Shown piece by piece: positions 20,311-47,126 of a DNA stretch of 64,000 bases. A program made the position numbers and the translations under genes. Each line of letters starts with the position of its first letter. Positions within the stretch are counted from its first letter, which is position 1. Where the stretch lies: positions 19,826 through 83,825 of IMG/VR virus record IMGVR_UViG_3300012346_000220, one strand, 5' to 3'. This DNA is from a virus. Taxonomy: Duplodnaviria; Heunggongvirae; Uroviricota; Caudoviricetes. Below the pieces are notes generated by a model. That model saw only the letters and a program-made list of their open reading frames with translations, made no database searches and was not told the origin of the DNA.

Positions 20311-23300
20311 ATGGCCAAATACCTGACCCTACCTGACGGTTCTTCGTTTCAGATGAAGGAGGGGCAGACTCCCGCCGCAGCCATGCAAGAAGCGGTACAG
20401 CGCTTCCCCGAAGCGTTTGGTTTTGGCGAAGACAAACCAACGCAAGACACCACTGGTTTCAAAGCTGCCGCAGCCGCAGGCTTTGAGCGCCTCAAAGGCG
20501 AGACGGCGCTGACTGCCGGTAAGTTGGGCCTGATGGACACCGCAAAAGCGGAGCAGTACCAGAAGGAAAAAGAAGCCGCAGCGCAAGCCCGCTTCACGCC
20601 CACAGAAGACGGCTGGACCGAATCTCCTCTCCAGAAACTGAAAGAAACTGCTGGCGGCTCTTTGCCGTACATGCTGGCTCCTGTTGCAGCAGGCGCTGCT
20701 GCTTTGGCCGCTCCAGTATCCGCCCCGGTTGCTGCGGGCTTGGGTTTGGTAGGCGCAGGACTGGCGTCCACCGGGCAGTTCACGGGCTCCAACTTGGCCC
20801 GTCAGATGGACACCGGCAAGTCTCTTGAACAGACAAGTCTGGGCTCTGCCGTAGGCGCAGCCGTTCCTCAAGCGCTGATCGACACCGCTGCCATGGCCCT
20901 GCTGCCCGGCGTGGGCAAACTGTTCGGTTCTGTGGGCTCCAAGCTGACAACCGAGCAAGCCAAAGCGATTGCTTCCCAGACTCTGGGCAGAACAGTTGCC
21001 GACTACGCAGCCAAGACAGGTACGGCCATGGGCCGTGAGGGCGTTACCGAAGCCGCGCAACAACTGCTGGAGCGCGTACAGGCAGGTCTTGCCATCGCAG
21101 ACCCTGAAGCCCGCAAAGAGTACATCGACAGCTTCATCGGCGGAGCCGCCCTTGCAGGCGTAGGCGCACCAGTTGGCCGCGCCATTGAACGCAGCGGCGC
21201 AAAGTCTCAAGCAGCGGAAGCGGATCGTGCCGATCAAGCCAAAGCAGCAGCCGAGGCCGAAGCTGCCAAGAATCAGCCAGACGCCCTGCGCCAGCTAAGC
21301 AGCGATTTCAGCGCAGCGGATCAACAGCTTCAAGCCATCAACGCCAAGCTGGCAGAGATCAAACCCGGTAAGGGCGCGACAGCCGAGCAAAAGCAAGCGT
21401 ATGAAGCGCTTAAAGCGGAGCGTGCTGAGCTGCTGACCACCTACAAACCACTGCGCCAAGAGTACGCGAAGCGCAAGAGCGCTATCGACCAGTTGGACGC
21501 AGACCGCCAGACAGCTTTGGAAGTCGAAACTGCGGCCGGGCAAGAAGCTGCCAAGGAAGCTGTGCCTGCCGAAGAGCCCCAGCTCGACGTGCAAAAGCTC
21601 ATGTTGGAGCAAGACACACTGCGCAACCAGATTGCAGGCATTGAGGAACAGTTGGCCCAAGCTGCGCCAGAACAGTTTGACGCATTGAATGCCCAGCGCC
21701 AAGACTTGCAGCGCCGCATTGATGCCCGAGCTACGCTGATTGAAGAGCGTGGCGGTTCTCCGTTGGCGCGAGCGGAGTTTGAGCAAGCCACATCCGCCAA
21801 GATGCAGGCGATCGACACTCGTCTGGACAAGCTCAACGCCACCTACACCGCCGCACTTAGCAATAAAGACTACGACGCTGCGGCAAAAGCCAAGGACGAG
21901 TTGCTGACCCTGCGCCAAGAGCGTAACGACCTGACTACCAAAACAGCGCAGCAGATGCAGGCGCTGCAAGAGAAGCAGGCAGGGCTGGCGCAGCGCGGCC
22001 AGACACGTGACTTGTTTACGGAAGCTCCGGCTGCACCCACCGCCGCTGCGGACGAGCAGCTCAAGCAGCAGACACTGGAAGAAGAAAAACAACGTGCGTT
22101 GTACGGCCCGGAGTCAAAGAAGGCGTCGGCCGAGCAAGCGTTTGGCGAAACCGAAATCGGTCCTCGCGGTCAGTTGGAGCCCCTCACCCAGATGACGGAG
22201 CCGACTGCGCAGACCGGTATCAAGCCAAAGCAGTTGGCGCTGGTGGAGGAGACAACCGAGAAAGTATCCGCTGCACAAACAGCACTGGAAGACGCCGCCA
22301 AGACCAAAGACACGCAAGCAATTTACGCTGCCGCCGATGCACTCAACCAAGCCAAGAGCGAAGGCTCCCGTGCGCAAGATGAAGTGGGTCGTGGAATGTT
22401 CCGCCCCGTTGTGTTGGATTTGTTCAGCCCCGCCAACATCATCAACACGGCGATTCAAAGCGGCGACACCAAGCTCATCAACGACATCGCAACCCATGCC
22501 GATACTACGGCGCTGCGCACATCGTTGGATGAGAAGCTGAGCGAACGGGAAAGACTCGCCCGGTTGCTGGACACTCGCTTGGACTTGGGCGGTGAAGAGA
22601 AGGCCGCAACAGGCGAGAAGCTGAAGAGCGTCAAGCGCGAACGCGCTGATCTGTTCTCACAACTCTACGACGCCCGGCAGCAGGCGCTGTTTAAGAACGG
22701 CACGTACCCCGACCGTGAATTGCAGGCACTGTACGACCAAGGCGGTCCTGCCGCAGTTGAGTACGAGCGCGTCATGCAGGACGTTGAGGAACTATCCAAA
22801 AAGGTCACGACCAAGCAAGGCAACGCCAAGAAGTCTTTGTATGAACAGCTCGTTGACTTAGCTGCGCAGCACAGCGCACTTGTGGCGCAGATGGAGTCCG
22901 GTGTTGCTACACCAAACCTGCGCGAGAAGACGGCCGCACTGCAAGCCAAGACCGGCAAGGGTAAAACCCCGGCCGAGCGTCAGATGGACGCCGCCGAGAA
23001 GTACCAGCTTCAGCGCAAGATGGATGCGCTGGTCAACAAGTACAAAATGGTTGAGGGTCAGGTTGCCCCCATTCGTGACCAGATCACGAAGTTGTACAGC
23101 AGCTTGTACAAGACTACTCCGCTTGAGAAAGCCAGCACGATTGCTGAACGAAAAGAAAACGAGTCCGATGCGCAAGCCCGTGGCCCAAAGGCAGTCTCGC
23201 GCACAGCCAAGACTGCCGCACGTATTGCCAAGGGTGACGTGCGCAAAGAAGCCGAGACCTCCCAGAAGCTGCGCGATCTGGCGCGTGACTTGGGCATGGA

Positions 23301-26300
23301 AGAAGCCGAGTACAAAAAACTCAACGACAACTTGACGAAGCGGTTTGCTGCGTTGAAAGAGAAGTATGGCAAGTTTGACCCTGCGGTGACTTCTTTTCAG
23401 ATCAACATGGTCGACCAGTTGAACGAGAAGGCAATTGCGCTGGGCAAGGCCACGCCGGAGTACAAGGCAACGCTGAAAGAGCAGGTCGAGTACTTCAAAG
23501 AAGTGCTGCCAACCGCAGGCAAACAAACGCTTTCTACCAAGCGCACCGGCCAAGTCACGCGCAAGCAGAATGCTGCGCCAAGCCGTCTGGTGTCCTCCTC
23601 GCCTGAGAGCCGCGCACAGACTGACATTGAAGACCGGGCCGTGCGCATCAAGCGCGGCTCACTCAAGGACTTCCAAGAAGCGCTGGACTCCGAGAAGTAC
23701 GGCACTGCCTACCGTTTTAAAGAAGGCGAAGCCGACACCGTGGTTGATGCTGCGGAAGCCCAGAAGATGGTGGACGGCCTTGACCTGCCAGCCAACGTCA
23801 AGTTTGTGTACGCCCCCACATCGCGGCAAGTACCCGTGCGCTTGCTCAAATTGATGGCCAACGACGGCGTCGATGTTGTGGATGGCATGGTGCGCGGCGC
23901 AGTGTTCCCTGACGGCACGGTGTTGGTTATCGGTGACCAGCACGCCAACGTCAAAGACTTGGAAGAGACGATTGCCCACGAGCTGATCGGCCACTACGGT
24001 GTGGACACCATCATCGGGCTTGAGCGCCTGAATGCTTTTGCCAAGAAGACCGACGTGATTGAACTGGCTGAGCAGCTTGGCGGTAAAGCCTTGGTTGCGG
24101 ACGTCATGAACACCGTGCGGGCCAATGCCGACATGGGCCGCAGTGAAGAAGTGCAAAAGCTGCAAGCTCTGCGCGAGATCATTGCGCACACTGAAGAGGC
24201 CCGCATCACGGAAGCCTTCAAACAGAAAGCCGGTCGTTGGCTCAAGGAGCTGGTCGGTATGGTTCGCGCAGGTCTGCGCAGCATGGGGTTCAAGAGCTTG
24301 CCCGAGCTGTCTACGTCTGACGTGTTCTACATGCTCAAGCAGTCGCGCAAAGCGTTTGCCAACAAGACTATCGGGCCTTACAAAGCAGTCGATGGCGGCG
24401 TTGCTTTCCGTGTGCGCAACCAGCCACAGCCCTACAAAACTGTCGGCGGTCAGCCCAGCGCAGTCAACAACTTCTTGGGCAACGTGATGGGCCTTGCAGG
24501 CCGCGTGCAGTTCATCGACCAGTACGCAGCTTTGGATGCCGCTACTAAGAAGGGTTTGAGCGCCGGAGTCATCAGCAGCTTAGAAGCCACAAACGTCAAC
24601 TACCTGCTGCGCTTTGGCCAGCAGCGCAGCCAGTTTGCTGGCCAGTTCCTGACCAACGGCCCCGTCAAGGCGGAGATTACGCGCAAGGACGGCGGCACTG
24701 AGACGCTGTACCGCAGCACCAAAGGCACGTCCATGCTGGATGTGGCAGCTGCTTTGAACAAGGCCAAGATCGGAAATGACACCGAGCAAGAAGCCATGTT
24801 CACGCTGTACATGGCGGGCAAACGTGCCGCGCAAGTGGGCTGGGACAAACTGAACGTCACGAACGCCGCTGAGTCCAAGGCCGAATACAACGACGTGATG
24901 GCGCGTCTGGATGCCAACCCGCAGGCCAAGCAAGCGTTTGAGGACGCAGCCAAGCTGTACAAAGAGTACAACGCAGGCTTGATGGACTTCCTCGTCGATA
25001 CGGGCGCACTGCCCGCCAAGAAAGCTGCTGAACTGAAGGCCATCGACTACGTGCCGTTCTACCGCATCAACGCCAACGGCGAAGTGCAACTGATGGTGGA
25101 CAAAGAGCGCCCTGTGCGCATCGCCAACATCAAGGATCAGCCGCAGCTCAAGGAGCTGGTCGGCGGCAATGACGCCATCATGCCGATCTTCACCAGTTCG
25201 GCGCAGAACACGTTCATGATTGCTGGCATGGGCTTGCGCAACCAAGCGGTGAAGGAGACCTCCTTCATGCTGCAAAAGCTCGGCATCGCCAGCCGCGTAG
25301 CGTCCGGCAAAGGCCCACAAGGCGACAACGTCGTGCGCTTCTTCAAGAACGGTGAGCCGTACTACGCACTGATCGACACTGACGCTTACGGCGTGCCAGC
25401 AGAACTCATCGTGCGCGGCATGGATGGTATCAAGACCACGCTGCCTGCGGTCATCAAACTGCTCGGCATTCCGGCCAACATCTTGCGCTCATTCGTTGTG
25501 CGCAACCCCACCTACGCCGTGCGTCAGATCATCCGCGATCCGCTGAACGCTTGGATGACAACCGGCACTGACGCCGTGCCTGTGCTCTCGTCCATGAAAG
25601 AGCTGGCCAGCATGGTCGCTGGGCGCAGTGACGCTGAGAAGAAGCTCATGGAGACAGGCGCGATCAGCAGCAACGTCTACAGCGGCGATGAGCAAGACAT
25701 GGCCAAGTTCTTGAAGGACTTGTCGGCCGGTAAGACGGGCTGGGACAAAGCGCTGTCTGCGCTGGACACATTCGCCCTCCAAGGCGATGCGGCTACCCGC
25801 GCCGTGATCTACAAGGACTCGCTGGCCAAGGGCATGACGGAGCAGGAAGCTCTGCTGCGCACACTGGAGTCGATGAACTTCAGCCGCCGCGGTGTGTCCC
25901 CCAGCATGCAGGCGCTGTCCACCCTCATCCCGTTCTTCAACGCACAGGTACAGGGTCTGGACGTGATCTATCGCGCCATGAAAGGCGACATGCCTTTCAG
26001 CCAGCAACTCGACATCCGGGGCAAGATGGTGCGCCGTGGTTTGATGCTGGCCGCAGGCACGATTGCCTACGCCGCCATGATGGAGGACGATGAGGCATAC
26101 CAACGCGCCAAACCTGAAGAGCGCCTTGCCAACTGGTTCGTGTACTTGCCCGGTGTTGACGAGCCTGTGCGTGTACCAATCCCGTTTGAAATGGGCTTCT
26201 TGTTCAAGGCGCTGCCTGAAGCGGTGTACGCCATGGCCATGCAAGACGGCAAAGCTGACGCTGCACTGAGTGGATTGTCCAAGCTGGCTATGCAGACTGT

Positions 26301-26964
26301 GCCTTTGACCCTGCCGCAAGCGGTCAAGCCGATCACTGAGGCGATACTGGGCAAGTCGTTCTACAGCGGCGACATCGAATCTACACGCGAGAAAGACGTG
26401 TTGGCCACTGAGCGCTACCGAGACTCCACCACGGAGTTGGCCAAGACGATTGGCGCAGTAACTGGAAAAGCGGGCGTCAGCCCGATCATGCTGGACTACT
26501 TGATGCGCGGGTATACCGGCGGTCTGGGGATTGCGCTTGTGCAGCTCGCCAACCCGTTGCTGGCTTCCAGCGATAAGGCAGAAGTCGCACAGCCAACAAC
26601 CAAGATCAGCAAGCAACCTTTCATCGGCGGGCTGTTCCAACCTGTTGAGGGCCGGGGTACGTTGGACGAAGCCTACGACCGCATGAAAGAAATTCAGCAG
26701 GTCAAGGGCACGTTCAACGACATGGTTGCCAAAGGCCAGAGAGCAGAAGCTATGGCGTTTGCACAGGAGTACTCTGACAAACTGTCGGCGGCTTCGATCT
26801 CCGGCAGCGTGCAAAAGCAGTTGGGCGAGTTGGCCAAGCTGGAGCGCCAGATCAAGAGCAGCCCAAGCCTGACCACTGAGCAGAAAGATGCGCGTCTGGC
26901 GCAGCTCGACAAGCTCAAGACAGCGACAGCCCGGCAGTTCCTTGGCGTGACCGCTCAGCGATAA
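20311..26964 (+). CDS. Giant virion-module protein (2217 aa): coiled-coil-rich N-terminal ~1000 aa, central zincin-like HExxH (IAHELIGHYG) region, large C-terminal domain of unknown function
   Basis: Single uninterrupted ORF. The HELIGH motif at about aa 1215 is read directly. The N-terminal half is a long, charged, heptad-like low-complexity region. Last gene of the structural block. Confidence 0.6.
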   Translation: MAKYLTLPDGSSFQMKEGQTPAAAMQEAVQRFPEAFGFGEDKPTQDTTGFKAAAAAGFERLKGETALTAGKLGLMDTAKAEQYQKEKEAAAQARFTPTEDGWTESPLQKLKETAGGSLPYMLAPVAAGAAALAAPVSAPVAAGLGLVGAGLASTGQFTGSNLARQMDTGKSLEQTSLGSAVGAAVPQALIDTAAMALLPGVGKLFGSVGSKLTTEQAKAIASQTLGRTVADYAAKTGTAMGREGVTEAAQQLLERVQAGLAIADPEARKEYIDSFIGGAALAGVGAPVGRAIERSGAKSQAAEADRADQAKAAAEAEAAKNQPDALRQLSSDFSAADQQLQAINAKLAEIKPGKGATAEQKQAYEALKAERAELLTTYKPLRQEYAKRKSAIDQLDADRQTALEVETAAGQEAAKEAVPAEEPQLDVQKLMLEQDTLRNQIAGIEEQLAQAAPEQFDALNAQRQDLQRRIDARATLIEERGGSPLARAEFEQATSAKMQAIDTRLDKLNATYTAALSNKDYDAAAKAKDELLTLRQERNDLTTKTAQQMQALQEKQAGLAQRGQTRDLFTEAPAAPTAAADEQLKQQTLEEEKQRALYGPESKKASAEQAFGETEIGPRGQLEPLTQMTEPTAQTGIKPKQLALVEETTEKVSAAQTALEDAAKTKDTQAIYAAADALNQAKSEGSRAQDEVGRGMFRPVVLDLFSPANIINTAIQSGDTKLINDIATHADTTALRTSLDEKLSERERLARLLDTRLDLGGEEKAATGEKLKSVKRERADLFSQLYDARQQALFKNGTYPDRELQALYDQGGPAAVEYERVMQDVEELSKKVTTKQGNAKKSLYEQLVDLAAQHSALVAQMESGVATPNLREKTAALQAKTGKGKTPAERQMDAAEKYQLQRKMDALVNKYKMVEGQVAPIRDQITKLYSSLYKTTPLEKASTIAERKENESDAQARGPKAVSRTAKTAARIAKGDVRKEAETSQKLRDLARDLGMEEAEYKKLNDNLTKRFAALKEKYGKFDPAVTSFQINMVDQLNEKAIALGKATPEYKATLKEQVEYFKEVLPTAGKQTLSTKRTGQVTRKQNAAPSRLVSSSPESRAQTDIEDRAVRIKRGSLKDFQEALDSEKYGTAYRFKEGEADTVVDAAEAQKMVDGLDLPANVKFVYAPTSRQVPVRLLKLMANDGVDVVDGMVRGAVFPDGTVLVIGDQHANVKDLEETIAHELIGHYGVDTIIGLERLNAFAKKTDVIELAEQLGGKALVADVMNTVRANADMGRSEEVQKLQALREIIAHTEEARITEAFKQKAGRWLKELVGMVRAGLRSMGFKSLPELSTSDVFYMLKQSRKAFANKTIGPYKAVDGGVAFRVRNQPQPYKTVGGQPSAVNNFLGNVMGLAGRVQFIDQYAALDAATKKGLSAGVISSLEATNVNYLLRFGQQRSQFAGQFLTNGPVKAEITRKDGGTETLYRSTKGTSMLDVAAALNKAKIGNDTEQEAMFTLYMAGKRAAQVGWDKLNVTNAAESKAEYNDVMARLDANPQAKQAFEDAAKLYKEYNAGLMDFLVDTGALPAKKAAELKAIDYVPFYRINANGEVQLMVDKERPVRIANIKDQPQLKELVGGNDAIMPIFTSSAQNTFMIAGMGLRNQAVKETSFMLQKLGIASRVASGKGPQGDNVVRFFKNGEPYYALIDTDAYGVPAELIVRGMDGIKTTLPAVIKLLGIPANILRSFVVRNPTYAVRQIIRDPLNAWMTTGTDAVPVLSSMKELASMVAGRSDAEKKLMETGAISSNVYSGDEQDMAKFLKDLSAGKTGWDKALSALDTFALQGDAATRAVIYKDSLAKGMTEQEALLRTLESMNFSRRGVSPSMQALSTLIPFFNAQVQGLDVIYRAMKGDMPFSQQLDIRGKMVRRGLMLAAGTIAYAAMMEDDEAYQRAKPEERLANWFVYLPGVDEPVRVPIPFEMGFLFKALPEAVYAMAMQDGKADAALSGLSKLAMQTVPLTLPQAVKPITEAILGKSFYSGDIESTREKDVLATERYRDSTTELAKTIGAVTGKAGVSPIMLDYLMRGYTGGLGIALVQLANPLLASSDKAEVAQPTTKISKQPFIGGLFQPVEGRGTLDEAYDRMKEIQQVKGTFNDMVAKGQRAEAMAFAQEYSDKLSAASISGSVQKQLGELAKLERQIKSSPSLTTEQKDARLAQLDKLKTATARQFLGVTAQR

Positions 26965-27102: not shown

Positions 27103-30090
27103 TCAACCCGCACCCAAGGGAATGCTCTGGAGTACTGAGTCATCGAGTGTGCTCATGTTCGCGCTCAGGCGCAGTGTTGCCACACGCATCGGAGGTCCGT
27201 CCGTCTTGGCCAGCATGTCCTTCTTGGGGACTTGCTGCACGATGAACGACTGCGCAATGTCCTGTTTGAACGTGGCGTAGCTGAAGCTCATGTTGGAGCA
27301 GTACGCACGCAGCAGGCGCTCCTCGATGTAGAAGTCGATGTAACCCGGATTGACGCCATGCTCGACCCGGCCCATGATCTCTTGCCGTGTGGTGGTCTTG
27401 CCCACACTCGTGCCGTCACCGAACATCGCAGCAGGGCCAGCCTTCTCGCCGTACTTGACGATGACGAACTTGCCTTGGAACTCTTGCGTGAACGCGTTGA
27501 GCACATCTTCTGCTGTGCGCTTGCCGCCCTTGATAGCTTGACGCTGGTGGTCGATCTGGCGACGGTAGGATTCGATGATCTCCTGCAAGGGGATGTTGAC
27601 GATACCTGCGTGCTTGTCGCTCAAAAGCAAACCTGCCGCAACGATTGCGCCCACACCCGCCATCCAGTACCGCTCGTCGTTGGGGGCCTTGTACTCGGTG
27701 TACATGCGGCGCACACACTCAGGCACCAGTTCACGCAACATGCTGGCGTTGTCCACCAGATACTGCGCCAAGATTTCGCCTGCTACAGCGAAGTTGAACG
27801 GCAGCGTCTTGATGATCTCGATCTCCTCTTGGGACCACTCCAACTTCACGTCCATGTTGAACTCGATCATGCGGCGCAGCTCACCCTCGGAGGAGTGCTT
27901 GCGCTCACCTGTCATGTAGTCAACGGCAGGGCGGTTGGAGGACATCAGCGCCAGCGTGGCCCATGTTGACAGGTTCAGCCGTTCTTTGTTGGTGCCCGAC
28001 TCCATACGCTCTTTGCCGCGACCTTCGCTCATACTGAACAAGAAAGCAGGGAACCACTCGAAGTCCTTGCGGTTGTTGGTTGTGATCTCGTCCGTGATGA
28101 GCGGCAAGCTGCGCAGGTGGCCAAGGCGTTGCTGCATGGCAACAGGCGATGTGCCCGAGCCTGTGCGGTAGTGGATGGGATGGCCCCAGATGGATGCTGC
28201 TGCGTCCAGTGACAACGACTTACCAGTGCCTGACTCAGTGGACGCTACGTGGACTGTCATGCCCAGCAGGCCCGTGAACTTCATCAAGGGGGCGGCAGCA
28301 CCGGCCAGCACAACGGCCAACTGATCCCACATCTTGCGCCGCACCATCATGTTGATGACGTTTCTCCACGCATCGAGTGTGCCCGTGGGCTTGGTGCTGT
28401 TCACAATGTTTTGCAGCTCCGTCATCGGAACCATGACGGGCTGGCGATTGGCGCTGTACACGCGGCTTGCAAACACAAACGTACCGTCGTCTTGCCAGCC
28501 GTAGCTTGGCGGCATGTTGATCGGGGACCGTTCCACGCTGATCTTCTCAACGCTGGCGCGGACGTAGTCGTAGAAGTTCTTGTCGTTGCCGGAGCCAAAT
28601 GCTGCCATGACGTTCTGGTTGGCCAAGTGCTTGATCGTCTCGTCCTTGCTGGCCAGACATTTCTGCGGCACCAGTACGTTGTGAAGTTGCTTGTTCTTGA
28701 TGACGCAGAAGTGCACTTCGTGACTACCGTTGTTGTTCAGCACGTCCACCGGGAAAATAGTGTTGGAGCAAAGCAACAGTTGCTTCGTCACCTTGTGACC
28801 GTCCGTGTCTTCCTCGATGCGCTCCAAGAACACGCCGCCCCTTGCGCCAAAGGCATAACCCCGTGGTGGCTCAGGCTGGGCAATCAGTACCGTGTCGGCC
28901 TCAGTATCGGCATCGGGCGCTGCACTGCTTTCAACCTCGACCATAGTCTCGTCAGTGGTCACGGCCATCTCTCGGCCCCACAGCAGTGGGTTGGTGATCT
29001 TGCCCCAGTGGGAGCAGCCACGGCACACGCCGGGATTCATGTCGTCCATCGCTGCGCATGAGTACGGGCCTTTGATCTCGGCCAGCTTCTGGTGCATGCG
29101 CTCGTGCGGGTATGGGTGCAGGTCGCTCAGCCATTCCGAAGCCTTCGTACCGTCTGCGCAGACCTTGGCCCAACTGAGTACCCCTCGCCAGATCGGCTCC
29201 ATGCCGTCATCGCTTGCGTTCTCCACGTAGTTCTGGAGCTGGGCGCAGCCTGAGCCTTGCTTTGTTTTGACCAGAATTTTTTTGAACAACGTCACGCTGT
29301 TTTGCGCAAGCGCAGTCAACATGGTCGGAGGGTTGACACCCGTCGGCCTCTGCCCCGGCAGGGCCAGCGTGGAGCTGGAGGGCATCTTCACAAACTCTGG
29401 ACCGAACCCCTCGGCCGTCATGATGGCCTCGATGTCGTCCACAGCAAAGCGGTCGCCCTCGGAGAGACTGCGCACACGCGTAGCTGCGCGTACAGCCTTG
29501 CCGTTCTTGATCCCGGTGTTGATGGTGTCAGGCACACGCAAGACGCGGGAAGCATCGCCTGTGACAGCGGTGTCGATGGCCAGCCCGTGCTTTAAGCACA
29601 GCTCTTTGAAGCGCTTGGCAAAGGCGTACCACTCGTCCTTGAACAGCATAGTGTCCAGCGGCCAGTAGGCGTGAATGCCCCCGCCGGAGTGAACCATCCA
29701 AGGATCGCCCAGCGCAGCCAGCCCTGTGTCTTCGCAGAACTTCTGCAACGCCTGCGCCGCAGCTTTGGCGCTGGGGTATGACTTGTCCTTGATGACCAGC
29801 TCACCCTCTTTGTCTGGCACAGGGATGTCTTTGGGGTGGTTGCAGTCAAGGTCCACGGCCAGCACTTGGCTGGCGTGCATGTTGTCCTTGGTGCGGTCTT
29901 TGTCCGTGCCGAACGTGCCGAGTGCGAAGTACGTGTCGTACCCAGCTTGCGCCCACTTCTCAATGGTGGGCATGAGTTCCTCAAGTGTTTGTCCGAAGAC
30001 GTGTTGTTTCTTCTTCGAGAGTTCTACCGCGCAGTAATAGCCATTACCCGGAGACGGCAAAACCGCCGCCATCAAATCGAGCGGAGTCAT
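27103..30090 (-). CDS. Bifunctional primase-polymerase (AEP/prim-pol) / SF3 (D5-like) helicase
   Basis: N-terminal prim-pol-like region (DLD...HSGGGIHAYW). Downstream Walker A GTGKSLSLDAAASIWG, typical of SF3 helicases. Confidence 0.75.
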   Translation of the reverse strand: MTPLDLMAAVLPSPGNGYYCAVELSKKKQHVFGQTLEELMPTIEKWAQAGYDTYFALGTFGTDKDRTKDNMHASQVLAVDLDCNHPKDIPVPDKEGELVIKDKSYPSAKAAAQALQKFCEDTGLAALGDPWMVHSGGGIHAYWPLDTMLFKDEWYAFAKRFKELCLKHGLAIDTAVTGDASRVLRVPDTINTGIKNGKAVRAATRVRSLSEGDRFAVDDIEAIMTAEGFGPEFVKMPSSSTLALPGQRPTGVNPPTMLTALAQNSVTLFKKILVKTKQGSGCAQLQNYVENASDDGMEPIWRGVLSWAKVCADGTKASEWLSDLHPYPHERMHQKLAEIKGPYSCAAMDDMNPGVCRGCSHWGKITNPLLWGREMAVTTDETMVEVESSAAPDADTEADTVLIAQPEPPRGYAFGARGGVFLERIEEDTDGHKVTKQLLLCSNTIFPVDVLNNNGSHEVHFCVIKNKQLHNVLVPQKCLASKDETIKHLANQNVMAAFGSGNDKNFYDYVRASVEKISVERSPINMPPSYGWQDDGTFVFASRVYSANRQPVMVPMTELQNIVNSTKPTGTLDAWRNVINMMVRRKMWDQLAVVLAGAAAPLMKFTGLLGMTVHVASTESGTGKSLSLDAAASIWGHPIHYRTGSGTSPVAMQQRLGHLRSLPLITDEITTNNRKDFEWFPAFLFSMSEGRGKERMESGTNKERLNLSTWATLALMSSNRPAVDYMTGERKHSSEGELRRMIEFNMDVKLEWSQEEIEIIKTLPFNFAVAGEILAQYLVDNASMLRELVPECVRRMYTEYKAPNDERYWMAGVGAIVAAGLLLSDKHAGIVNIPLQEIIESYRRQIDHQRQAIKGGKRTAEDVLNAFTQEFQGKFVIVKYGEKAGPAAMFGDGTSVGKTTTRQEIMGRVEHGVNPGYIDFYIEERLLRAYCSNMSFSYATFKQDIAQSFIVQQVPKKDMLAKTDGPPMRVATLRLSANMSTLDDSVLQSIPLGAG

Positions 30091-30232
30091 GGGGGTCCTT
30101 CGGGAACGGTTTACTTGAGGTCGTCTTCGGTGGTGTCCAGCAGCTTAGTGAAGCGCTCGTACAGCTCTTTCACGAAGTCAACGGACACGTTGTAGTTCTG
30201 CATGTAGATGTGGTGCAGCAACTCTTCGTCGG

Positions 30233-30511
30233 TCAGGGCTTGAGGTTGTACTCGTGACATATTCTTCTCCATGCCTCGTCAGCGTTCTGCGAGGATTGCA
30301 TAATTGTTAAAAGGGTTTCCACGCGATGACGGTACGCGACAAAGACTTCTGATCCGTTGAACCAGTTGTAGACGGTCTGTCGTGTGACGCCGAGGGCGTA
30401 GGCTATTTTCGTGACGGGGAAATCCAGATGGATAGCCCAACGCCCAAGCTGGTTGCCCAGAGACTTGGGAGTCTTCATCACGTCATCAATGATTTTTTGT
30501 GAGTAGGCCAT
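30233..30511 (-). CDS. XRE-family HTH transcriptional regulator
   Basis: Start chosen at the internal ATG at 30511 (MAYSQKII...). An HTH is recognisable (TKIAYALGVTRQTVYNWFNG). A GC hairpin with a TTCG loop lies immediately 5' of the start. Confidence 0.5.
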   Translation of the reverse strand: MAYSQKIIDDVMKTPKSLGNQLGRWAIHLDFPVTKIAYALGVTRQTVYNWFNGSEVFVAYRHRVETLLTIMQSSQNADEAWRRICHEYNLKP

Positions 30512-30537
30512 GGTAGTAGGGGCCGAAGCCCCTTTGG

Positions 30538-31341
30538 TTATTTGATGTGCACGAACGGTGTGACCTGTCCGGGCATCGTGGTCGGCAGCTTGCCGTCCCA
30601 CTTCTCGATGGCCTTCAGCTCCACATACTCTTTGCCGCCTTGCGATGTGATGGCAGCAGCACGCATACGGATTGCGTCAGCGTCACCCTGCGCTTCGACG
30701 CGCTTGCGATCCGCTTCCGCTTTGGCCAGCTCAACTTCCTTTTGCTTTGCGGCGATCTGGAAGTTGCGGTTTGCGGACTCCTTGATGGATGCCTCCAGTG
30801 CAGGGTCAGTCACCAAGTTGCGCACGTTGGCGCTGCGCACGAAGAACCAGCCCTTACCAGCGCTCTCGTCCAAGTCCTTTTGCAGGGCTTCAACGACCTT
30901 GGCGGCGATGGCTACGCGCTCGGTGTGCACTGTCTCGGAGCTGTAAACAGACACTGCGTTGTAGATGGCCTCGCGGGCTTGGCGGCTGACGTAGCTGTTA
31001 CCGACACGCACACCCTCTTCGCCTTTGAGTTCCACCATGTCACCGGGCCAGCGGGTCATGATGTCCGCAGCTTTGCTCGGGTCGATCTGGTAGTAGATGT
31101 CCACGTCCAAGTCGGTCAAGGTAATCTTGTCCTTGGTCTGCGGCTTCATGTCGTTCATCTGAAGCAGCAGCTCTTTGGCCGACACTTCTGTGACGCGCTT
31201 GAACAGCGTGAAGTAGACGCCTGGCGCCATGGTTTCTTTTTTGACTTGGCCCATGGTGGACTCGACGCCGATGTTGCCGGTGTCGATCTGAGTGCAAGCA
31301 GACAGTGCTGCGGCTGCGATGATGGTGATAATTTTTTTCAT
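30538..31341 (-). CDS. SPFH/band-7 (HflC/prohibitin-like) domain lipoprotein
   Basis: Start at the internal ATG at 31341. Signal peptide with lipobox (MKKIITIIAAAALSAC). The core, a coiled coil and a C-terminal region match SPFH-family architecture. Confidence 0.7.
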   Translation of the reverse strand: MKKIITIIAAAALSACTQIDTGNIGVESTMGQVKKETMAPGVYFTLFKRVTEVSAKELLLQMNDMKPQTKDKITLTDLDVDIYYQIDPSKAADIMTRWPGDMVELKGEEGVRVGNSYVSRQAREAIYNAVSVYSSETVHTERVAIAAKVVEALQKDLDESAGKGWFFVRSANVRNLVTDPALEASIKESANRNFQIAAKQKEVELAKAEADRKRVEAQGDADAIRMRAAAITSQGGKEYVELKAIEKWDGKLPTTMPGQVTPFVHIK

Positions 31342-31348
31342 GTGTCTC

Positions 31349-31540
31349 TCAAAGAATGTTGATTGATCCGTTATGCGCGGCGAAGAACAAACCAGCCCAT
31401 AGGCCGAGCCAGATTGCAATGATTGTTGCCGCGTGGCGAAGTACAAAGTCTTTTATGAAGAACTTTGCCCGTGGTGGTGTGTAGTGCCAGCCGAAGTAAC
31501 CAGCGACCAGCAGTACCAACAAAAGGATTACGTGCTTCAC
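31349..31540 (-). CDS. Small two-helix membrane protein upstream of the SPFH gene
   Basis: 63 aa with two hydrophobic helices (ILLLVLLVAGYFGW, IIAIWLGLWAGLFFAA). Confidence 0.5.
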   Translation of the reverse strand: MKHVILLLVLLVAGYFGWHYTPPRAKFFIKDFVLRHAATIIAIWLGLWAGLFFAAHNGSINIL

Positions 31541-31827
31541 TTCTCAACCTTTGTTGGGAACAGTTGCGACAGCACGCTCTCGTACTGCGTCTTGCGGCGC
31601 TCAAGCAGCGCTACCTTGTCCAGCTTGTCCAGCAGGTTGGGGAAGTTGATGTCTTCTTTGGAGCACTGCTCTTGGATGTCAGCTTCCAAGCGGACCAGCT
31701 CGTCGTCCAGCTTGGCCATCTCCAGCTCGGCTTGGCTCTTCATCTTCCGAGCACGGATGGGGGCCAGCGACTCGGCCAGTTTTTCTTTGGACAATCCAAT
31801 AATTTCTGCGAATGGTTTCAATGTCAT
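31537..31827 (-). CDS. Coiled-coil protein
   Basis: 96 aa, highly charged and helical. ATGA-coupled. Confidence 0.4.
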   Translation of the reverse strand: MTLKPFAEIIGLSKEKLAESLAPIRARKMKSQAELEMAKLDDELVRLEADIQEQCSKEDINFPNLLDKLDKVALLERRKTQYESVLSQLFPTKVEK

Positions 31828-32105
31828 GCTACTTCTCCAGTTAATAAAAGTTTGGTGTCTGCATTGCTGAGAAAGCTCAGCGGGGTTACTTCTTTCTTGA
31901 CGGTCTTTGGCGCTTCGTTGAAGCCAAGAAATGCAGGGTCGGATACCCTGTAGTTCATTTGCTCAACGTGCATCAGCTCACGCTCCACGCGCCACAACTT
32001 TTCTTCGTAGTAACGCGCTTCGTCGCTGCTGCGAGAGGAGCGTATTGCTTGCCTCAAGTAGTCTCGCTCGTGGTGTATGGAGCTCATTGAGTTCATGATT
32101 GCCAT
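31824..32105 (-). CDS. Hypothetical protein
   Basis: 93 aa. Confidence 0.35.
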   Translation of the reverse strand: MAIMNSMSSIHHERDYLRQAIRSSRSSDEARYYEEKLWRVERELMHVEQMNYRVSDPAFLGFNEAPKTVKKEVTPLSFLSNADTKLLLTGEVA

Positions 32106-32217
32106 GTGCTTCTCCTTGTAGGTGGGGGTACTCGCTGCGTCTGCTGGGGCTGCACCGCATGAACTGAATCACTTGGCTGAGCGTTATCCAGCAGCATCCG
32201 CTTTCCCCCCGGTTCAA

Positions 32218-33198
32218 TTACTCGTCGTCCCAATCGGACACGATGTCAGCCAGCTTGGACTTCTTGGCAGGCACGGCACCACCTTTGGCGGTCTCCTTGC
32301 GCACTTCGGGTTCGTCCGTCTCGGCTTCTTCCACTGGCTTGGCTTTGGCCTTGGCAGCTTTCGGTGCCGGTGCTGGAGCCTCGTCTTCTTCCTCTTCAGC
32401 CGCAGGCGCTGGTGCTGCCTTAGCAACGGCCTTGGGCGCAGCGCCGCCGATGTTCATCGGTGCAGCTTTCACGCCGTCAGCTTGCGCCACGGTCAGGGTC
32501 ACAGCCTTCTTGGCATCGTCAGACTCGCCTTGCGACACAGCGATCGGGTACTCGTCGTCTGTCAACCAGCGCGTAGGCGCGAAGAACAGCTTGGGAGACT
32601 CGGCCTTGGTGTCGAACTTCATGCGCGTGACGATCTGCTCGGGGTTAACCGGAGGTGTCTGCGCTGCCAAGAAGCGGGCGTAGGCTTGCAGGGGACGCTT
32701 GTCGCCTTCTTCCTTACCGAAGATGCTGGTAGCTGGGAGTGTCAGTTGCAACACATCGCCTTCTGGATTGTCGGCCAGCACAACAGCAAGGCGCTGTTGG
32801 AAGCGGCAGGCACGGCTATTACCGTTACCGGAACCGGCTTCGTTCTGTGGGCAACCCATGCAGGTGGCGTGTTGAGGGGCCGTCAGGCTTGCGTCGGGCT
32901 TCTCGCCGTCGTTGCTCCAGCACTCAGGACGCACAATCGCCTCGGCGTTGTAAGCGCCAGCGTAGAAGATGCGGCTGACTTTGGGGGCAGCGCGAACAAT
33001 GATGACGTCAAGGTGACGGTCGTCGATGCTGGTGATCTCCTTGCCGCCTGCCACCAGACGGAACACGCCGCCCTTGATGGAGATGCGCTTGGTAGATACG
33101 CCAGAACCGCCGGTCAGGGCCTTGGCTGTGTCAGACAACTCGTTGTTACGAGCAAATGCGGGGACGTTGGACGAATTGAAAAGCGTAATGTTGCTCAT
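32218..33198 (-). CDS. Putative ssDNA-binding protein (DUF2815-like) with long Ala/Pro/Lys-rich linker and acidic C-terminal tail (..SDWDDE)
   Basis: Domain resemblance is from memory. The acidic C-terminal tail and the Cys cluster (C..C...CMGCP) can be read directly. Position between the helicases is typical of phage replication modules. Confidence 0.5.
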   Translation of the reverse strand: MSNITLFNSSNVPAFARNNELSDTAKALTGGSGVSTKRISIKGGVFRLVAGGKEITSIDDRHLDVIIVRAAPKVSRIFYAGAYNAEAIVRPECWSNDGEKPDASLTAPQHATCMGCPQNEAGSGNGNSRACRFQQRLAVVLADNPEGDVLQLTLPATSIFGKEEGDKRPLQAYARFLAAQTPPVNPEQIVTRMKFDTKAESPKLFFAPTRWLTDDEYPIAVSQGESDDAKKAVTLTVAQADGVKAAPMNIGGAAPKAVAKAAPAPAAEEEEDEAPAPAPKAAKAKAKPVEEAETDEPEVRKETAKGGAVPAKKSKLADIVSDWDDE

Positions 33199-33205
33199 GA
33201 TTGCG

Positions 33206-33622
33206 TTACTTTCTTGCTTTGGTTACACGAATGTCGAACTCAGTGACTGAGTTCAGCCCCGGCGGCAGAACACCGGGGTTCTCTTCCAGAAACTGCGCCA
33301 TGTTGGTTTGGGCGATGCGCTTCTCCAACAGGTCTACGACTTGATGCTCAAGCACGAATGCTTTGAACGAGTCCCAGTCCTGTGTGTTGTAGCGCGTCTT
33401 CTTCATCAACGACACGGTTCCCGTGGAGGTCTGGACCGATGTCAGGCCGAGGGCCTTCATCTGGTCTTTAATGGCGAGGCGCACCTGCGTGCGGGTCTCG
33501 TCCAGCTCAGCGAGCTGGCGATCAAGGACTTCCATCTTGGCCTTGATCTTTGTGTGAATGGCGACCAGCTTGTCGAGCGGAATTGCTTCGACTTCCGGTG
33601 CTTCTTCGATGTCTTCGGTCAT
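33206..33622 (-). CDS. Hypothetical protein
   Basis: 138 aa. Acidic N-terminus. Confidence 0.35.
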   Translation of the reverse strand: MTEDIEEAPEVEAIPLDKLVAIHTKIKAKMEVLDRQLAELDETRTQVRLAIKDQMKALGLTSVQTSTGTVSLMKKTRYNTQDWDSFKAFVLEHQVVDLLEKRIAQTNMAQFLEENPGVLPPGLNSVTEFDIRVTKARK

Positions 33623-33690: not shown

Positions 33691-35250
33691 TCAAGAATTT
33701 ATTTCGAGGGTGAACATCTCGGTCAGAAGTGAGCTATCGCTCACTTTCGCTGCGAGGGCCTTGAACATCTTGGCCTCCACGGGGGAGCTTTGGATGTGGA
33801 AGACTGTCACCTTGTCGGCGTTCTGGCCCTTGCGGTCGGCACGGGCAATACACTGGATGTACTGCTCAACGCTCATCAAGGGGCCGTAGAACACCACGGT
33901 GTCAGCGGCAGTCAACGTAATGCCGTGCGCTGTAGCAGCAGGCTGCATGACCAGCACCCTTGGGTCGGGGTCGGTCTGGAAGCGGTGGATGATGTCGCCT
34001 CGTTTGTTGGCTGATACACCGCCGTGGATGCACTCGTTGGTGATGCCCTTGGATGTCAGGTGGCGCTGGATGGTCTCGATGCTGGCGCGGAACAACGCGA
34101 AGACGATGACCTTGCGGTTTGTCTCCTCCAGAATCTCCTCCAACACGCCAAGCCTTGGGCCAGCGTCGAACTCCACCACCTCTTTGGTGTCGGTCAGCGC
34201 AGCACCCGCAGATACCTGAAGCAGCTTGCTCAGCATAGCAGCGGCATTGACCGCAGTGATGACCTCTCCAGCAGCTTGGACCAGCATCTGATCCTTGAGC
34301 ATGTTGTAGTACTTGGCCTGCTGCGGAGTCAGCGGAACCTCGCGGGTCAGCGTCATCACTGGCGGCAAGTCAAGGCACTGGTCTTTGGAGAACCGGATCG
34401 CTGGTTGCAGCGCATTGAACACACGGTCACGCGCATCGGGTTTGGGTGCCCACTTGTACAGCGTGATCTTGTTCATCACCGAGTCGCGCCATCCTGTGTA
34501 GAACAGCGGCACGTTGTCAGGGTTGACCAGCTTGGCCAGCCCGTACGCATCAGCAGGCGACTGCGATGCTGGTGTGCCCGTCATCATCCACAGGTGTGTC
34601 TTCGGTCCGATGATGGACTTGAGCGTCTTCCATCGCTTGGTGGTCACTGTCTTGTAGGCGTTGGCCTCGTCAACAATCACCAGATCAAAGCGCCCGTCAT
34701 TGACGATCTCCTCGGCAATCAGGTTCAGTCCATCGTAGTTGCAGATCACGAACTCGTAGTCCTGCTGAATCATCTCGATGCGGCGTGACGACTTGCTGTG
34801 ATGCGCCACGATGGCCGAGCGGTGGATGATGCTGTTGTTCAGATCACTGAGCCATGCTGAGTGCATGATCGACAGTGGGCACAGTATCAACACACGCCGC
34901 ACAAAGCCTAGCTTCATCAAGTAGTCAGCGGCCCATAGCGATGCAAGCGTCTTGCCTGTGCCGGGATCGTTGAAACAAAACGCCCGCTTGTGCATCGTGA
35001 GAAATGCCGCAGTGTCCACTTGGTGAGCCATCGGTTTGTAGCGCCCCGGCCAGTCATAGCGCCGTGTGATCGGTGACTGGATGTCCTTCACGCCGAGGTT
35101 CTTCAGAACACGCGCTTCGTCCAAGCCCCAGTACACCGCAACATCGAAGCCGCCATCATCACGCTCGATGACTTTGTGCTTGGGGATGATCTTGTACTTC
35201 TCTGGGTTGCGTGTTCTGAAGACGATGGCCTTGTCGTCAATGATGTCCAA
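33691..35250 (-). CDS. SNF2-family (DEAD/DEAH-box) helicase
   Basis: Motif I NDPGTGKT, motif II VIVDEANAYK, and a C-terminal helicase domain (ALFRASIETIQRHL...VLVMQPAATAHGITL). Confidence 0.75.
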   Translation of the reverse strand: MDIIDDKAIVFRTRNPEKYKIIPKHKVIERDDGGFDVAVYWGLDEARVLKNLGVKDIQSPITRRYDWPGRYKPMAHQVDTAAFLTMHKRAFCFNDPGTGKTLASLWAADYLMKLGFVRRVLILCPLSIMHSAWLSDLNNSIIHRSAIVAHHSKSSRRIEMIQQDYEFVICNYDGLNLIAEEIVNDGRFDLVIVDEANAYKTVTTKRWKTLKSIIGPKTHLWMMTGTPASQSPADAYGLAKLVNPDNVPLFYTGWRDSVMNKITLYKWAPKPDARDRVFNALQPAIRFSKDQCLDLPPVMTLTREVPLTPQQAKYYNMLKDQMLVQAAGEVITAVNAAAMLSKLLQVSAGAALTDTKEVVEFDAGPRLGVLEEILEETNRKVIVFALFRASIETIQRHLTSKGITNECIHGGVSANKRGDIIHRFQTDPDPRVLVMQPAATAHGITLTAADTVVFYGPLMSVEQYIQCIARADRKGQNADKVTVFHIQSSPVEAKMFKALAAKVSDSSLLTEMFTLEINS

Positions 35251-35704
35251 AATACACCTCCTTCGCCATTAGGTACACCAGATGCGCCTCTTCAGGGCTG
35301 TTGAATATTCCAAGGTGTTGCTTGGCTTTGTGGGGAGGTGCTATTTGCGCAACCCAGCGGCCGCCTCGAAAGCTGTGTACTCCGGCCCAACCGCTCTTGT
35401 TGTTTCGGTTTGCCCCCGCTCTGTTGTGGGCATTGATGCGGCGCGTTACAACCCGCAAGTTGATCCACCTGTTATCCGCACGGTTGCAGTTCATATGGTC
35501 AACGTCTCGCGTGGGCAGGCTACCGGTTACATACAGCATAGCCAGTCGGTGTGCTTGGTACTGTTTACCTTGCACGACTATTTTTATGTAGCCGGTACTT
35601 GACAGCGTACCCGCACGCCGGTGTTTGTGCGTGCCGGTATTCCAACGGAACTCCCCTGTCAGCGGGTCGTACCGCAGCAGCCGTTTTAGTGTTTGCTGGT
35701 CCAT
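35237..35704 (-). CDS. HNH homing endonuclease
   Basis: YDPLTGEFRW...AHRLA...VDHMNCNRADNRWINLRVVT, a classic HNH architecture. Confidence 0.7.
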   Translation of the reverse strand: MDQQTLKRLLRYDPLTGEFRWNTGTHKHRRAGTLSSTGYIKIVVQGKQYQAHRLAMLYVTGSLPTRDVDHMNCNRADNRWINLRVVTRRINAHNRAGANRNNKSGWAGVHSFRGGRWVAQIAPPHKAKQHLGIFNSPEEAHLVYLMAKEVYFGHH

Positions 35705-43996: not shown

Positions 43997-44043
43997 GTTT
44001 TCTCCTTAAAACTTTATTTTGCTTGCCTAACCTTACTTTTTGC

Positions 44044-44715
44044 TTACGCCTCTCGCTTTAATCGCCTTGTTTCTGCGTTGTAGTGCTTGGCAATTTCAAT
44101 CAAGCCTTCATGGGTGTACGGCACTTCGCCTTTGTGCGTTGTTTTTGGTGTCAAAAGTGCCTCCTCTACCGTCATTCCGCTTGCAATCCTACGAACAATT
44201 GTGGTGTTAGACAAATAGCCACCAGTCACGCGACTCCATTCGTTTGCAGTCAAAGTCAGGCCATCAAACTCAATTGCATAATTCCCCTTTATTGTGTGCA
44301 ATTCTGGGTAGTTCCTTCGTGTATTACACACTCGGCATAACGGGCGCAAATTGTCGGGGATGTTGTTTTGAGGGTTGTTGTCTTTGTGGTCAATGTGTAC
44401 CGTTTCCCATGTCTCTGGTTTTCCGCATAACTCGCACGAATGAAGCGAGTAGCCAATTCGGTCAAACACTACTTTGCGATGCTCTGAAACATACCCTTGT
44501 GTGTCAGCAAGTGGATGGCTTGGCAAATACAGGCGCTGATAACCACGCCCAGGCATGGTGACTCGTTCTTGTCTACTGTAACCAAGCTCCTGTTTTTTTA
44601 TGGTCAACTTTGTGTCAGTTGTACCGTTTCTCATAACCCTAAAATAGTGCTTTTGGCAAAGGCAAGCGGCTTTGTACCTTACCTGCCCATCACAGTTTTC
44701 AACTTTGCATTGCAT
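44044..44715 (-). CDS. HNH endonuclease with N-terminal Cys-rich region
   Basis: HIDHKDNNPQNNIPDNLRPLCRVCN HNH motif. Start taken at ATG 44715. Confidence 0.7.
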   Translation of the reverse strand: MQCKVENCDGQVRYKAACLCQKHYFRVMRNGTTDTKLTIKKQELGYSRQERVTMPGRGYQRLYLPSHPLADTQGYVSEHRKVVFDRIGYSLHSCELCGKPETWETVHIDHKDNNPQNNIPDNLRPLCRVCNTRRNYPELHTIKGNYAIEFDGLTLTANEWSRVTGGYLSNTTIVRRIASGMTVEEALLTPKTTHKGEVPYTHEGLIEIAKHYNAETRRLKREA

Positions 44716-47102: not shown

Positions 47103-47126
47103 TCATGTTATTTTGTTGGTTGTTGC

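Follow-up and report, generated by a model that had tools for sequence, protein, structure and literature searches.

A prohibitin-type phage lipoprotein and its 63-residue membrane partner as a candidate mobile cassette in an early operon

The early operon of a tailed phage (Duplodnaviria; Heunggongvirae; Uroviricota; Caudoviricetes), represented by positions 19,826 to 83,825 of the IMG/VR record IMGVR_UViG_3300012346_000220, carries two adjacent genes, one for a 267-residue lipoprotein of the SPFH (band-7) superfamily (30538-31341) and one, directly upstream, for a 63-residue membrane protein that we term m63 (31349-31540, GTG start). This 64,000-nt stretch is the window analysed here; coordinates are positions within it, and all genes of the finding are on the minus strand. 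Judged from related loci, the two genes are a mobile accessory cassette that moves as one unit between phage backbones. As the best explanation of the whole, which we put somewhat short of an even chance, we hypothesize that the cassette builds, with m63, a periplasmic dome of the prohibitin/HflKC kind, whose client may be of the FtsH type.

The SPFH/band-7 identity proposed in a preliminary description of this DNA was confirmed by both profile and fold searches. The lipoprotein matches Pfam Band_7 (PF01145) over residues 18-210 (E = 1.8e-13, 51.4 bits against a cut-off of 23.6), and its residues 4-265 fall on positions 88-358 of the 379 of PHROG 200, annotated ‘lipoprotein’ (E = 1.3e-49). A single-sequence search of the PDB returned a best match of only E ~0.4, and a profile was needed. 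Using a family profile built from 121 diverse members, we found PHB2 (E = 8.6e-46) and PHB1 (6e-39) at the top of the PDB sequences, followed by erlin (5e-14), HflK (2.6e-13), stomatin (8e-10), QmcA (2.5e-7) and flotillin (8e-3). Because the E-values of PHB2 and PHB1 lie far below all others, the protein is of the prohibitin type and not of the HflC type; of the initial label ‘HflC/prohibitin-like’ the second half stands and the first is much weaker. Furthermore, the cassette lacks the paired paralogues of an HflK/HflC system: its SPFH gene is the only one in the stretch examined. An exact-sequence look-up of the protein found nothing.

A first AlphaFold2 run with 26 close relatives was unusable (pLDDT 56.9) and was repeated with the 121 diverse sequences, giving a monomer model of pLDDT 78.2 with strands at 16-86, helices at 88-160, a strand at 166-177, a 55-residue helix at 180-234 and a short helix at 236-246. 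Foldseek ranked the cage chains of human prohibitin, erlin, stomatin and HflK/C at the top, aligned along the entire length of these chains (probability 1.0, 240-290 columns). The domain layout is a signal peptide (1-15), the lipobox Cys16 (codon 31294-31296), SPFH1/2 (~16-177) and then the long helix, and the C-terminal motif KAIEKWDGKLP...PF (LKAIEKWDGKLP...PF) is among the family's best-conserved stretches, down to 23% identity.

The lipobox LSAC of the preliminary description likewise holds: L13-S14-A15-C16 (MKKIITIIAAAALSAC) fits the pattern [LVI][ASTVI][GAS]C, and across 26 relatives L13 and C16 are invariant and A15 is kept in at least 90%. A cleavable lipoprotein signal thus takes the place of the N-terminal transmembrane (TM) anchor of the prohibitin subfamily, which is absent here, and distant SPFH homologues appear to carry one or two N-terminal TM helices with the SPFH domain after them. 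Two sorting cues of the lipoprotein conflict. The residue at +2 after the lipobox Cys is Thr here and Thr or Ser in the family, and by the +2 rule of E. coli Thr or Ser after the Cys would sort a lipoprotein to the outer membrane; on the other side, the fold in the model begins at Cys16, with no disordered tether. As a separate observation, locus L077 (5869-6741) encodes a 290-residue fused homologue with two N-terminal TM helices, the second ending in a lipobox-like ALSAC. If cut by signal peptidase II, this form would give a free two-TM peptide and a lipoprotein, and it may be an evolutionary intermediate between fused and split forms.

m63 has two TM helices, a basic loop at residues 19-38 (mean net charge ~+3) and a short C-terminal tail, NGSINIL; on account of the ~+3 inter-helix loop, the predicted topology is N-out, loop-in and C-out. 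That a 63-residue two-helix membrane protein is encoded ahead of the SPFH gene, as first described, is borne out by independent public assemblies, in which m63 is called as a 63-residue gene, and by 42 related loci with readable upstream DNA and SPFH identity of 57-99%, drawn from IMG/VR contigs and one Aquabacterium metagenome-assembled genome (MAG). In 42 of these 42 loci the partner gene immediately precedes the SPFH gene, with -4 to 67 nt between them, and its product is exactly 63 residues long except in one case of 62. The 38 distinct partner sequences align without internal gaps and conserve M1 K2 H3, Y15 F16 W18 Y20, H36, S59 and [IL]62, with a C-terminal S-x-x-[IL]-[LFIV]. Judged from this gene order, the small membrane protein is the partner of the SPFH protein, and it forms an unannotated family of nearly fixed length.

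The m63 family gave no match in Pfam (E <= 0.1), PHROG, NCBIfam or PADLOC. Only 9 word-sharing relatives were found in 5.8 billion proteins, and an exhaustive hidden Markov model search of 1.84 billion representative proteins yielded 38 matches, 33 of them exactly 63 residues long; an exact-sequence look-up of P0121, a 98%-identical partner homologue, found nothing. The partner diverges much faster than the SPFH protein (30-76% against 57-99% identity), and its alleles are shuffled relative to it: at locus L001 the SPFH protein is 99% and the partner 37% identical, and at L039 the values are 99% and 76%.

Three identities were considered for m63 and rejected. The first, an NfeD-like partner, had been raised in the preliminary description, and m63 shares with such partners its position adjacent to, and co-oriented with, the SPFH gene; it matches no NfeD family in Pfam, nor anything in NCBIfam, PHROG or PADLOC, and its 63 residues, two TM helices included, are judged too few for a C-terminal soluble domain as well. 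The second is a detached N-terminal TM hairpin of the ~308-residue fused homologues found at loci L043 and L045, for which the hhalign probability is 0.2%. In the alignment with these homologues the lipoprotein signal peptide, not m63, sits at TM2, and the fact that the lengths of m63 and the lipoprotein sum to that of the fused form is kept as a topological analogy only. The third is a class II holin, which would be small, have two TM helices and a charged tail at the C-terminus, and be encoded with the endolysin; the tail NGSINIL has a mean net charge of ~+0.6, and the endolysin gene (11845-12351) is on the other strand.

Next, we examined the distribution of the two genes. An IMG/VR search with the primase encoded downstream returned 50 loci sharing a backbone of the gene for a 326-residue protein, an accessory slot, a helix-turn-helix (HTH) gene, the primase gene and usually a 53-residue open reading frame (ORF). 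The SPFH gene is present in 3 of the 50 (L002, L006 and L201, the last on the same contig as L004); in the remaining 47 the slot is empty, holds the 93- and 96-residue ORFs described below alone, or holds other short inserts. Core synteny with a known replication role, the contrary outcome that the preliminary description had foreseen, is therefore not what these loci show: only 3 of the 50 carry SPFH, and with 47 of 50 lacking it we rejected the cassette as part of the replication core. In blastn comparisons with the sister loci L172 and L175, whose flanks are 84-98% identical, homology ends at 31556 and resumes at 30534, and these break-points define a unit of 1,021 bp (30535-31555) that is present or absent and consists of exactly m63 and the SPFH gene with ~15 nt of leader. 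The same cassette is found on other backbones beside genes for a YqaJ-type exonuclease, the single-strand annealing protein (SSAP) Sak and a single-stranded-DNA-binding protein (SSB), and in the same slot L043 and L045 carry a different SPFH protein, 32% identical and TM-fused. The slot lies between the 326-residue gene and a conserved hairpin ahead of the HTH-primase unit. The module is thus narrower than first outlined: the HTH gene, the 53-residue ORF and the primase belong to the backbone, the 93- and 96-residue ORFs are separate, and only m63 and SPFH are the unit.

On other backbones the regions around the cassette hold Tad2-like, Nmad5 and integrase genes. A Tad2-like gene of the relatives (cluster c18, for example L014 3786-4232; PF11195, E = 3e-25) lies a few genes from the cassette, and an Acb2/Tad1-type hairpin gene lies two genes upstream of it in contig u5EeiuvZ; the early region around the slot may be a hotspot of conflict genes. 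A host in the Burkholderiales is suggested, not established: the sole close genome match is an Aquabacterium MAG contig, at 67%.

The SPFH gene itself is an ordinary member of a large phage family. A phage copy had been called unusual, a view that does not survive its membership of PHROG 200 and the homologues that tblastn found in 508 phage records, all below 60% identity (24-41% among the matches listed) and including Kayvirus, Kuttervirus, Bruynoghevirus, Bacillus, Caulobacter and jumbo phages. Among cultured phages none is close to the locus at the DNA level. In five cultured lineages with a lipoprotein-type SPFH protein, we found that a small membrane-protein gene abuts or overlaps the SPFH start: its product has 69 residues and two TM helices in Kuttervirus SP1, 84 residues and two TM helices in Bruynoghevirus vB_Pae_U2, 102 residues and one TM helix in Kayvirus GH15 (MbpV; PMC7150955), 91 residues and one TM helix in Sextaecvirus, and 116 residues and several TM helices in Caulobacter phage Karma. 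These partners are unrelated in sequence, and two of them belong to PHROGs 11742 and 11680, of unknown function. Two TM-anchored forms, the ~308-residue fused form of L043/L045 and an Erwinia jumbo-phage protein, have no TM partner directly upstream; a partner with the lipoprotein type and none with these two forms fits a partner that supplies the missing transmembrane element. Bacillus phage Taffo16 has a TM-anchored SPFH protein and still a 44-residue one-TM gene upstream. Furthermore, phage SPFH genes often adjoin replication genes, such as a helicase gene in Kuttervirus, a DNA polymerase gene in Sextaecvirus and a pol I gene in Taffo16.

Phage SPFH homologues have been noted in the literature since 2006 (PMC1524935), and papers on Kayvirus (PMC7150955), Kuttervirus (PMC10892097), the Burkholderia phage CSP3 (PMC10269572) and a satellite prophage of Pseudomonas (PMC4936722) discuss them, in each case as annotation or speculation. 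Our literature searches yielded annotation and speculation only, and no experiment on what an SPFH protein of a phage does during infection. We did not find described the 63-residue family of approximately fixed length, the rule that a small TM protein accompanies a lipoprotein-type SPFH protein, or the clean presence/absence polymorphism.

How such a pair might act can be laid out in steps. The lipoprotein would be exported, acylated at Cys16 and held on the periplasmic leaflet of the inner membrane; the extracytoplasmic side is expected because a lipoprotein is exported by definition and because distant homologues appear to have a TM anchor ahead of the SPFH domain, and retention at the inner membrane because the folded domain begins at Cys16 without a tether. 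There the protein would oligomerise through its long helix and the WDGKLP...PF cap into a ring or dome like those of PHB1/2 and HflK/C. Such oligomeric ring or cage assembly is the behaviour of the family (PMC12478178, PMC12624060), from which we infer it for the phage lipoprotein, and SPFH cages are described as confining a fraction of the membrane (PMC12478178). m63 would be the transmembrane element of the assembly, as an anchor or as an enclosed client, with its C-terminal tail in the periplasm and its basic loop in the cytoplasm, and would be functionally comparable to the NfeD partners of cellular SPFH proteins. We regard this scaffold-plus-partner architecture as probable.

Early in infection, such a dome would enclose part of the host inner membrane. 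The favoured client would be an FtsH-type membrane protease or quality-control complex; membrane proteins of phage or host would escape degradation once it is enclosed. Prohibitin pairs with the m-AAA protease, and it is by analogy with this pairing and with HflK/C-FtsH, the best known of the extracytoplasmic SPFH cages, that an FtsH-type client is favoured, rather unlikely as we judge that particular step to be. HflK/C modulates FtsH (PMC4850261), and structures are available (PDB 7wi3, 9cz2).

Several points weigh against the proposed dome. Thr or Ser at +2 would target the lipoprotein to the outer membrane, apart from its inner-membrane partner, and the SPFH lipoprotein of a P. multocida prophage has been reported in outer-membrane vesicles (PMC9872710). 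The shuffled partner alleles of L001 and L039 would argue against a tightly co-evolving large interface, and no sequence similarity was found between m63 and NfeD or the N-terminal hairpin of the fused homologues (hhalign 0.2%). The FtsH step is drawn by analogy from HflK/C and PHB, with nothing FtsH-specific in the data. Kayvirus and Kuttervirus are strictly lytic. With many carriers of this kind, the lambda CII/lysogeny logic would not be a general role.

Besides an FtsH link, the preliminary description had raised superinfection exclusion, lysis timing and counter-defence as candidate roles. In superinfection exclusion, a periplasmic scaffold and its partner would block the DNA entry of competing phages or shield inner-membrane entry factors, in a cell that is infected or lysogenised. 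An accessory, patchy and horizontally moving cassette in an early-gene slot is in keeping with this, as are the conflict genes (Tad2-like and Acb2/Tad1-like) that relatives carry in these regions and a fast-evolving partner whose alleles are shuffled, as expected of a specificity component. Furthermore, Kuttervirus SP1 has a gene with the annotation ‘superinfection exclusion’ at a distance of two genes from its pair, and the Ltp lipoprotein of S. thermophilus phage TP-J34 is the prototype for a family of lipoproteins that act in superinfection exclusion (PMC3952083). However, the SPFH protein evolves slowly (57-99% across backbones, with the C-terminal motif kept to 23%), which we judge atypical for an arms race, no PADLOC model matched, and the literature searched yielded no SPFH protein shown to exclude phages; we consider exclusion unlikely. 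Assignment of the cassette to a defence system was also rejected, there being no PADLOC match.

A function in lysis timing or membrane integrity, with the scaffold stabilising the energised inner membrane or restraining a small holin-like protein and so preventing premature lysis, draws on the gene order of other phages: the Kayvirus MbpV/MbpS pair lies between the endolysin gene and the Tgl transglycosylase gene, with MbpV called holin-like (PMC7150955), the Kuttervirus pair comes after a spanin gene and a gene annotated endolysin, and the small two-TM form of the partner falls in the class II holin size class. Here, in contrast, the endolysin gene (11845-12351) is 19 kb away in the late operon and the cassette is in the early/replication operon, a charged C-terminal tail, as expected of holins, is missing from the partner, and sister phages lack the cassette entirely, so it is not the essential lysis system. 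We find this reading very unlikely.

Still less probable, indeed highly improbable in our view, is an outer-membrane lipoprotein that serves as a lysogenic-conversion or host-fitness factor in the envelope or in vesicles, like the prophage protein PM0222 of Pasteurella multocida. In its favour, Thr or Ser and not Asp follows the lipidated Cys, some relatives have an integrase, the HflK/C-like PM0222 is released in outer-membrane vesicles and contributes to virulence (PMC9872710), and orf75 of CSP3 has been called a moron (PMC10269572). However, a disordered tether, found in about half of the outer-membrane lipoproteins of E. coli (bioRxiv 10.1101/2021.01.05.425367), is missing after Cys16. Moreover, the obligate partner is an integral membrane hairpin that should remain in the inner membrane, and the cassette sits in a packed early operon with 4-nt neighbour overlaps and no strong promoter or terminator of its own. 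Most cultured carriers, namely Kayvirus and Kuttervirus, are strictly lytic.

A role in tethering or organising the replisome of the phage at the membrane is hardly credible. In its favour, genes of replication are recurrent neighbours: that of the primase here, of a helicase in Kuttervirus, of DNA polymerases in Sextaecvirus and Taffo16, and of SSB, SSAP and exonuclease in relatives. Against it, a periplasmic SPFH domain cannot touch DNA, the partner exposes no more than a basic loop of 18-20 residues to the cytoplasm, the cassette is missing from 47 of the 50 phages that share the replication backbone, and shared early timing explains the adjacency more simply.

Returning to the periplasmic dome, prohibitin-like lipoproteins are present in hundreds of sequenced phages, including therapeutic Staphylococcus and Salmonella phages. 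The locus offers a two-gene unit of 1 kb and natural sisters with and without it, whose flanks are 84-98% identical; together they provide a near-isogenic comparison and a minimal construct for asking whether phages build SPFH cages and what such cages enclose. Were FtsH or an entry factor the client, the phage would take over the host membrane by a new route, and the pair would be a compact model for SPFH cage assembly. In a bolder version, which we hold to be quite unlikely, the SPFH system is split: a fast-evolving inner-membrane hairpin protein would replace both TM anchor and NfeD, and a phage-encoded periplasmic cage would capture an FtsH-like host machine and switch off quality control or a DNA-entry route. 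If true, this would be a general, so far unstudied device of host takeover, given a cassette that hops and analogues in Kayvirus, Kuttervirus and Bruynoghevirus.

The cassette stands in a tightly packed run of genes. In transcription order these encode the 326-residue protein (32218-33198), two small helical proteins of 93 (31824-32105) and 96 residues (31537-31827) without family matches, m63, the SPFH lipoprotein, a 92-residue HTH protein (30233-30511), the 53-residue ORF (30111-30272), conserved alongside HTH and primase, and the 995-residue primase-helicase (27103-30090). The 93-residue ORF, the 96-residue ORF and m63 are joined by 4-nt overlaps (ATGA, GTGA), and 7 nt separate the m63 stop from the SPFH start. 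A promoter scan gave a single weak promoter-like match (9/12, 31827-31799 on the coding strand), and terminator-like matches within the run are at consensus level only. Because of the tight packing and the scarcity of promoter and terminator signals, we read the run as one operon. The preliminary description was right to place the module in a replication operon, here an early/replication operon, and to name a primase-helicase downstream, which matches DUF927 and a primase/helicase PHROG. The 53-residue ORF starts inside the HTH gene, overlapping its 3′ end by 40 nt (30233-30272), or by 28 nt if the second Met is used. Long antisense ORFs on the plus strand face real genes (among them 30547-31362, 271 residues, and 32122-33246, 374 residues); they are probably artefacts of high GC content and gave spurious synteny clusters.

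Homologues of the 96-residue ORF (31537-31827) are 81-96% identical and those of the 93-residue ORF (31824-32105) 38-41%. Both ORFs occur without SPFH in L172, L175, L176, L180 and L181 and are missing from the SPFH-bearing L004/L201; they are independent occupants of the accessory slot. They had been described as two coiled-coil ORFs: the genes are real, and a crude heptad test lends the coiled coil weak support (p ~0.05-0.08).

The 92-residue protein, first taken for an XRE-type HTH protein, gave generic HTH matches below threshold, the best being HTH_23 (20.5 bits against a cut-off of 24.6), and XRE-type HTH_3 (PF01381) also stayed below its cut-off (14.3 against 23); all its Pfam matches are confined to the ~20-residue helix-turn-helix. 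It co-occurs with the primase in all 47 loci having the upstream region, irrespective of SPFH, and is part of the backbone, outside the cassette. Homology to the 92-residue DNA-binding protein encoded after the Kuttervirus SPFH gene was rejected, as no alignment was found.

The label SSB given earlier to the 326-residue protein has weak support, as this protein matches only PHROG 27714, of unknown function, and neither an SSB profile nor a PDB sequence. Its features are a Cys-rich centre, a linker rich in Ala, Pro, Lys and Glu and an acidic tail, DWDDE, and its gene is conserved beside the HTH-primase unit in 47 loci. It could be an unrecognised ssDNA-binding or recombination protein.

A GC-rich tetraloop hairpin or palindrome (AGGGGC-CGAA-GCCCCT, 30518-30533) lies within the 26 nt that separate the stop codon of the SPFH gene (30538-30540) from the HTH ATG (30511). 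On the mRNA it reads GGGGC-UUCG-GCCCC, with a free energy of -12.2 kcal/mol. It exists as first described, and it ends 6 nt ahead of the HTH ATG and so does not mask the start codon. Hairpins of this 6-bp class number 5 in the window against 3.4 +/- 1.6 in simulations, a count that alone is not beyond chance. Of 47 backbone loci, however, ~27 have the hairpin just ahead of the HTH start, whatever gene precedes it and with or without SPFH, and it is kept (L172-L219) across phages in which the identity of the HTH proteins is as low as 51% (51-100%). Pairing holds at all stem positions (100%) in 14 distinct sequences, with an outer A-U, G-U or G-C pair and four invariant GGGG/CCCC pairs, whereas the loops vary (UUCG, GCAA, GAAA, AUGC, UUAC) and the flanking sequences show no relation. 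On other backbones the hairpin is not kept after the SPFH gene. From this recurrence and pairing we take it as a real, conserved backbone element that marks the 3′ edge of the accessory slot, outside the cassette.

The coding strand reads GCCCCU-ACUACC-AUG and has no U-tract; the opposite strand is terminator-like at consensus level. An intrinsic terminator of the cassette was rejected, given the missing coding-strand U-tract and the lack of conservation after SPFH elsewhere, and the hairpin belongs to the HTH leader. Three of the five loop types are of the stable UNCG or GNRA kind and suggest that the element acts as RNA, in stability or processing; a DNA operator that the adjacent HTH protein could bind would fit equally, given invariant half-sites at a constant spacing of 4 bp. 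As an aside, L033 (6773-6848) has a tRNA-Gly(TCC) right after the SPFH stop, in the same SPFH-HTH gap as the hairpin here.

Elsewhere in the window, GC content falls from ~0.57 to ~0.47 near 44 kb, and the part from 44000 to 64000 holds a second, unrelated set of phage genes (helicase-like, ERF-like, exonuclease, SSB, lysis-like, tail spike and tape measure), among them one for a 331-residue helicase-like protein (47471-48466) that is 99% identical to contig IMGVR_UViG_3300020044_005901, which is not SPFH-bearing; the window looks composite. An ORF for a GIY-YIG-type homing endonuclease (4585-5274, plus strand; PHROG 314, E = 1e-39) stands among the virion genes. A 155-residue ORF (35237-35704, minus strand) between an SNF2 helicase gene and a nuclease gene is variably present in relatives and, judged by eye, may be HNH/AP2-like. 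A giant 2,217-residue ORF (20311-26964, plus strand) closes the late operon, convergent with the primase gene, and its counterpart in a sister contig carries an LPD38 domain.

Among known systems, which include bacterial ‘prohibitin family’ proteins, the prohibitins PHB1/PHB2 (PDB 8rrh, 9o9z, 9unl) stand out, well ahead of all others in the profile search and first in the fold search. The phage lipoprotein has the same domain order of SPFH1/2, long helix and C-terminal cap, and the source records of relatives use the names ‘prohibitin family protein’ or ‘prohibitin 2’. The side predicted for the phage lipoprotein agrees with that of the PHB cage, which is found on the non-cytoplasmic face of an energy-transducing membrane. 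In contrast to PHB, the phage protein has a lipid anchor in place of the N-terminal TM helix, a single SPFH gene and the 63-residue partner. With E. coli HflK/HflC-FtsH (PDB 7vhp, 7wi3, 9cz2) it shares the SPFH fold and, as predicted here, a periplasmic dome at the inner membrane, whereas the sequence relation is weaker (E ~1e-13 to 1e-10), there is neither a paralogue pair nor a TM anchor, and FtsH binding would be by analogy only. HflK/HflC are tied to phage biology through the stability of lambda CII (PMC4936722, PMC10269572).

The operons that pair SPFH with NfeD likewise have a membrane-protein gene beside the SPFH gene. QmcA faces the cytoplasm, whereas the phage lipoprotein is predicted to be periplasmic. 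Of these operons (QmcA-YbbJ, PDB 8z5g; PH1510/PH1511), the conserved co-transcribed pairing implies a physical or functional complex (PMC2636767), and the SPFH operon rule is reviewed by Yokoyama & Matsui 2020, as cited in PMC9872710. m63 differs in having no NfeD domain, for which it is judged too short, and the sequence relation of the lipoprotein to QmcA is weak (E = 2.5e-7).

The closest parallels within phages are the other PHROG 200 lipoproteins (Kuttervirus gp200/gp102, Kayvirus MbpS, the Bruynoghevirus ‘HflK family’ protein and Karma gp182), for none of which has a role been demonstrated as far as the literature was searched. They share the PHROG, 24-34% identity, a lipobox and an upstream small membrane gene, and the Bruynoghevirus and Karma proteins also share the WDGKLP motif; in contrast, their partners are unrelated, with other lengths and TM numbers, the Kuttervirus protein lacks the WDGKLP tail, and hosts and contexts differ.

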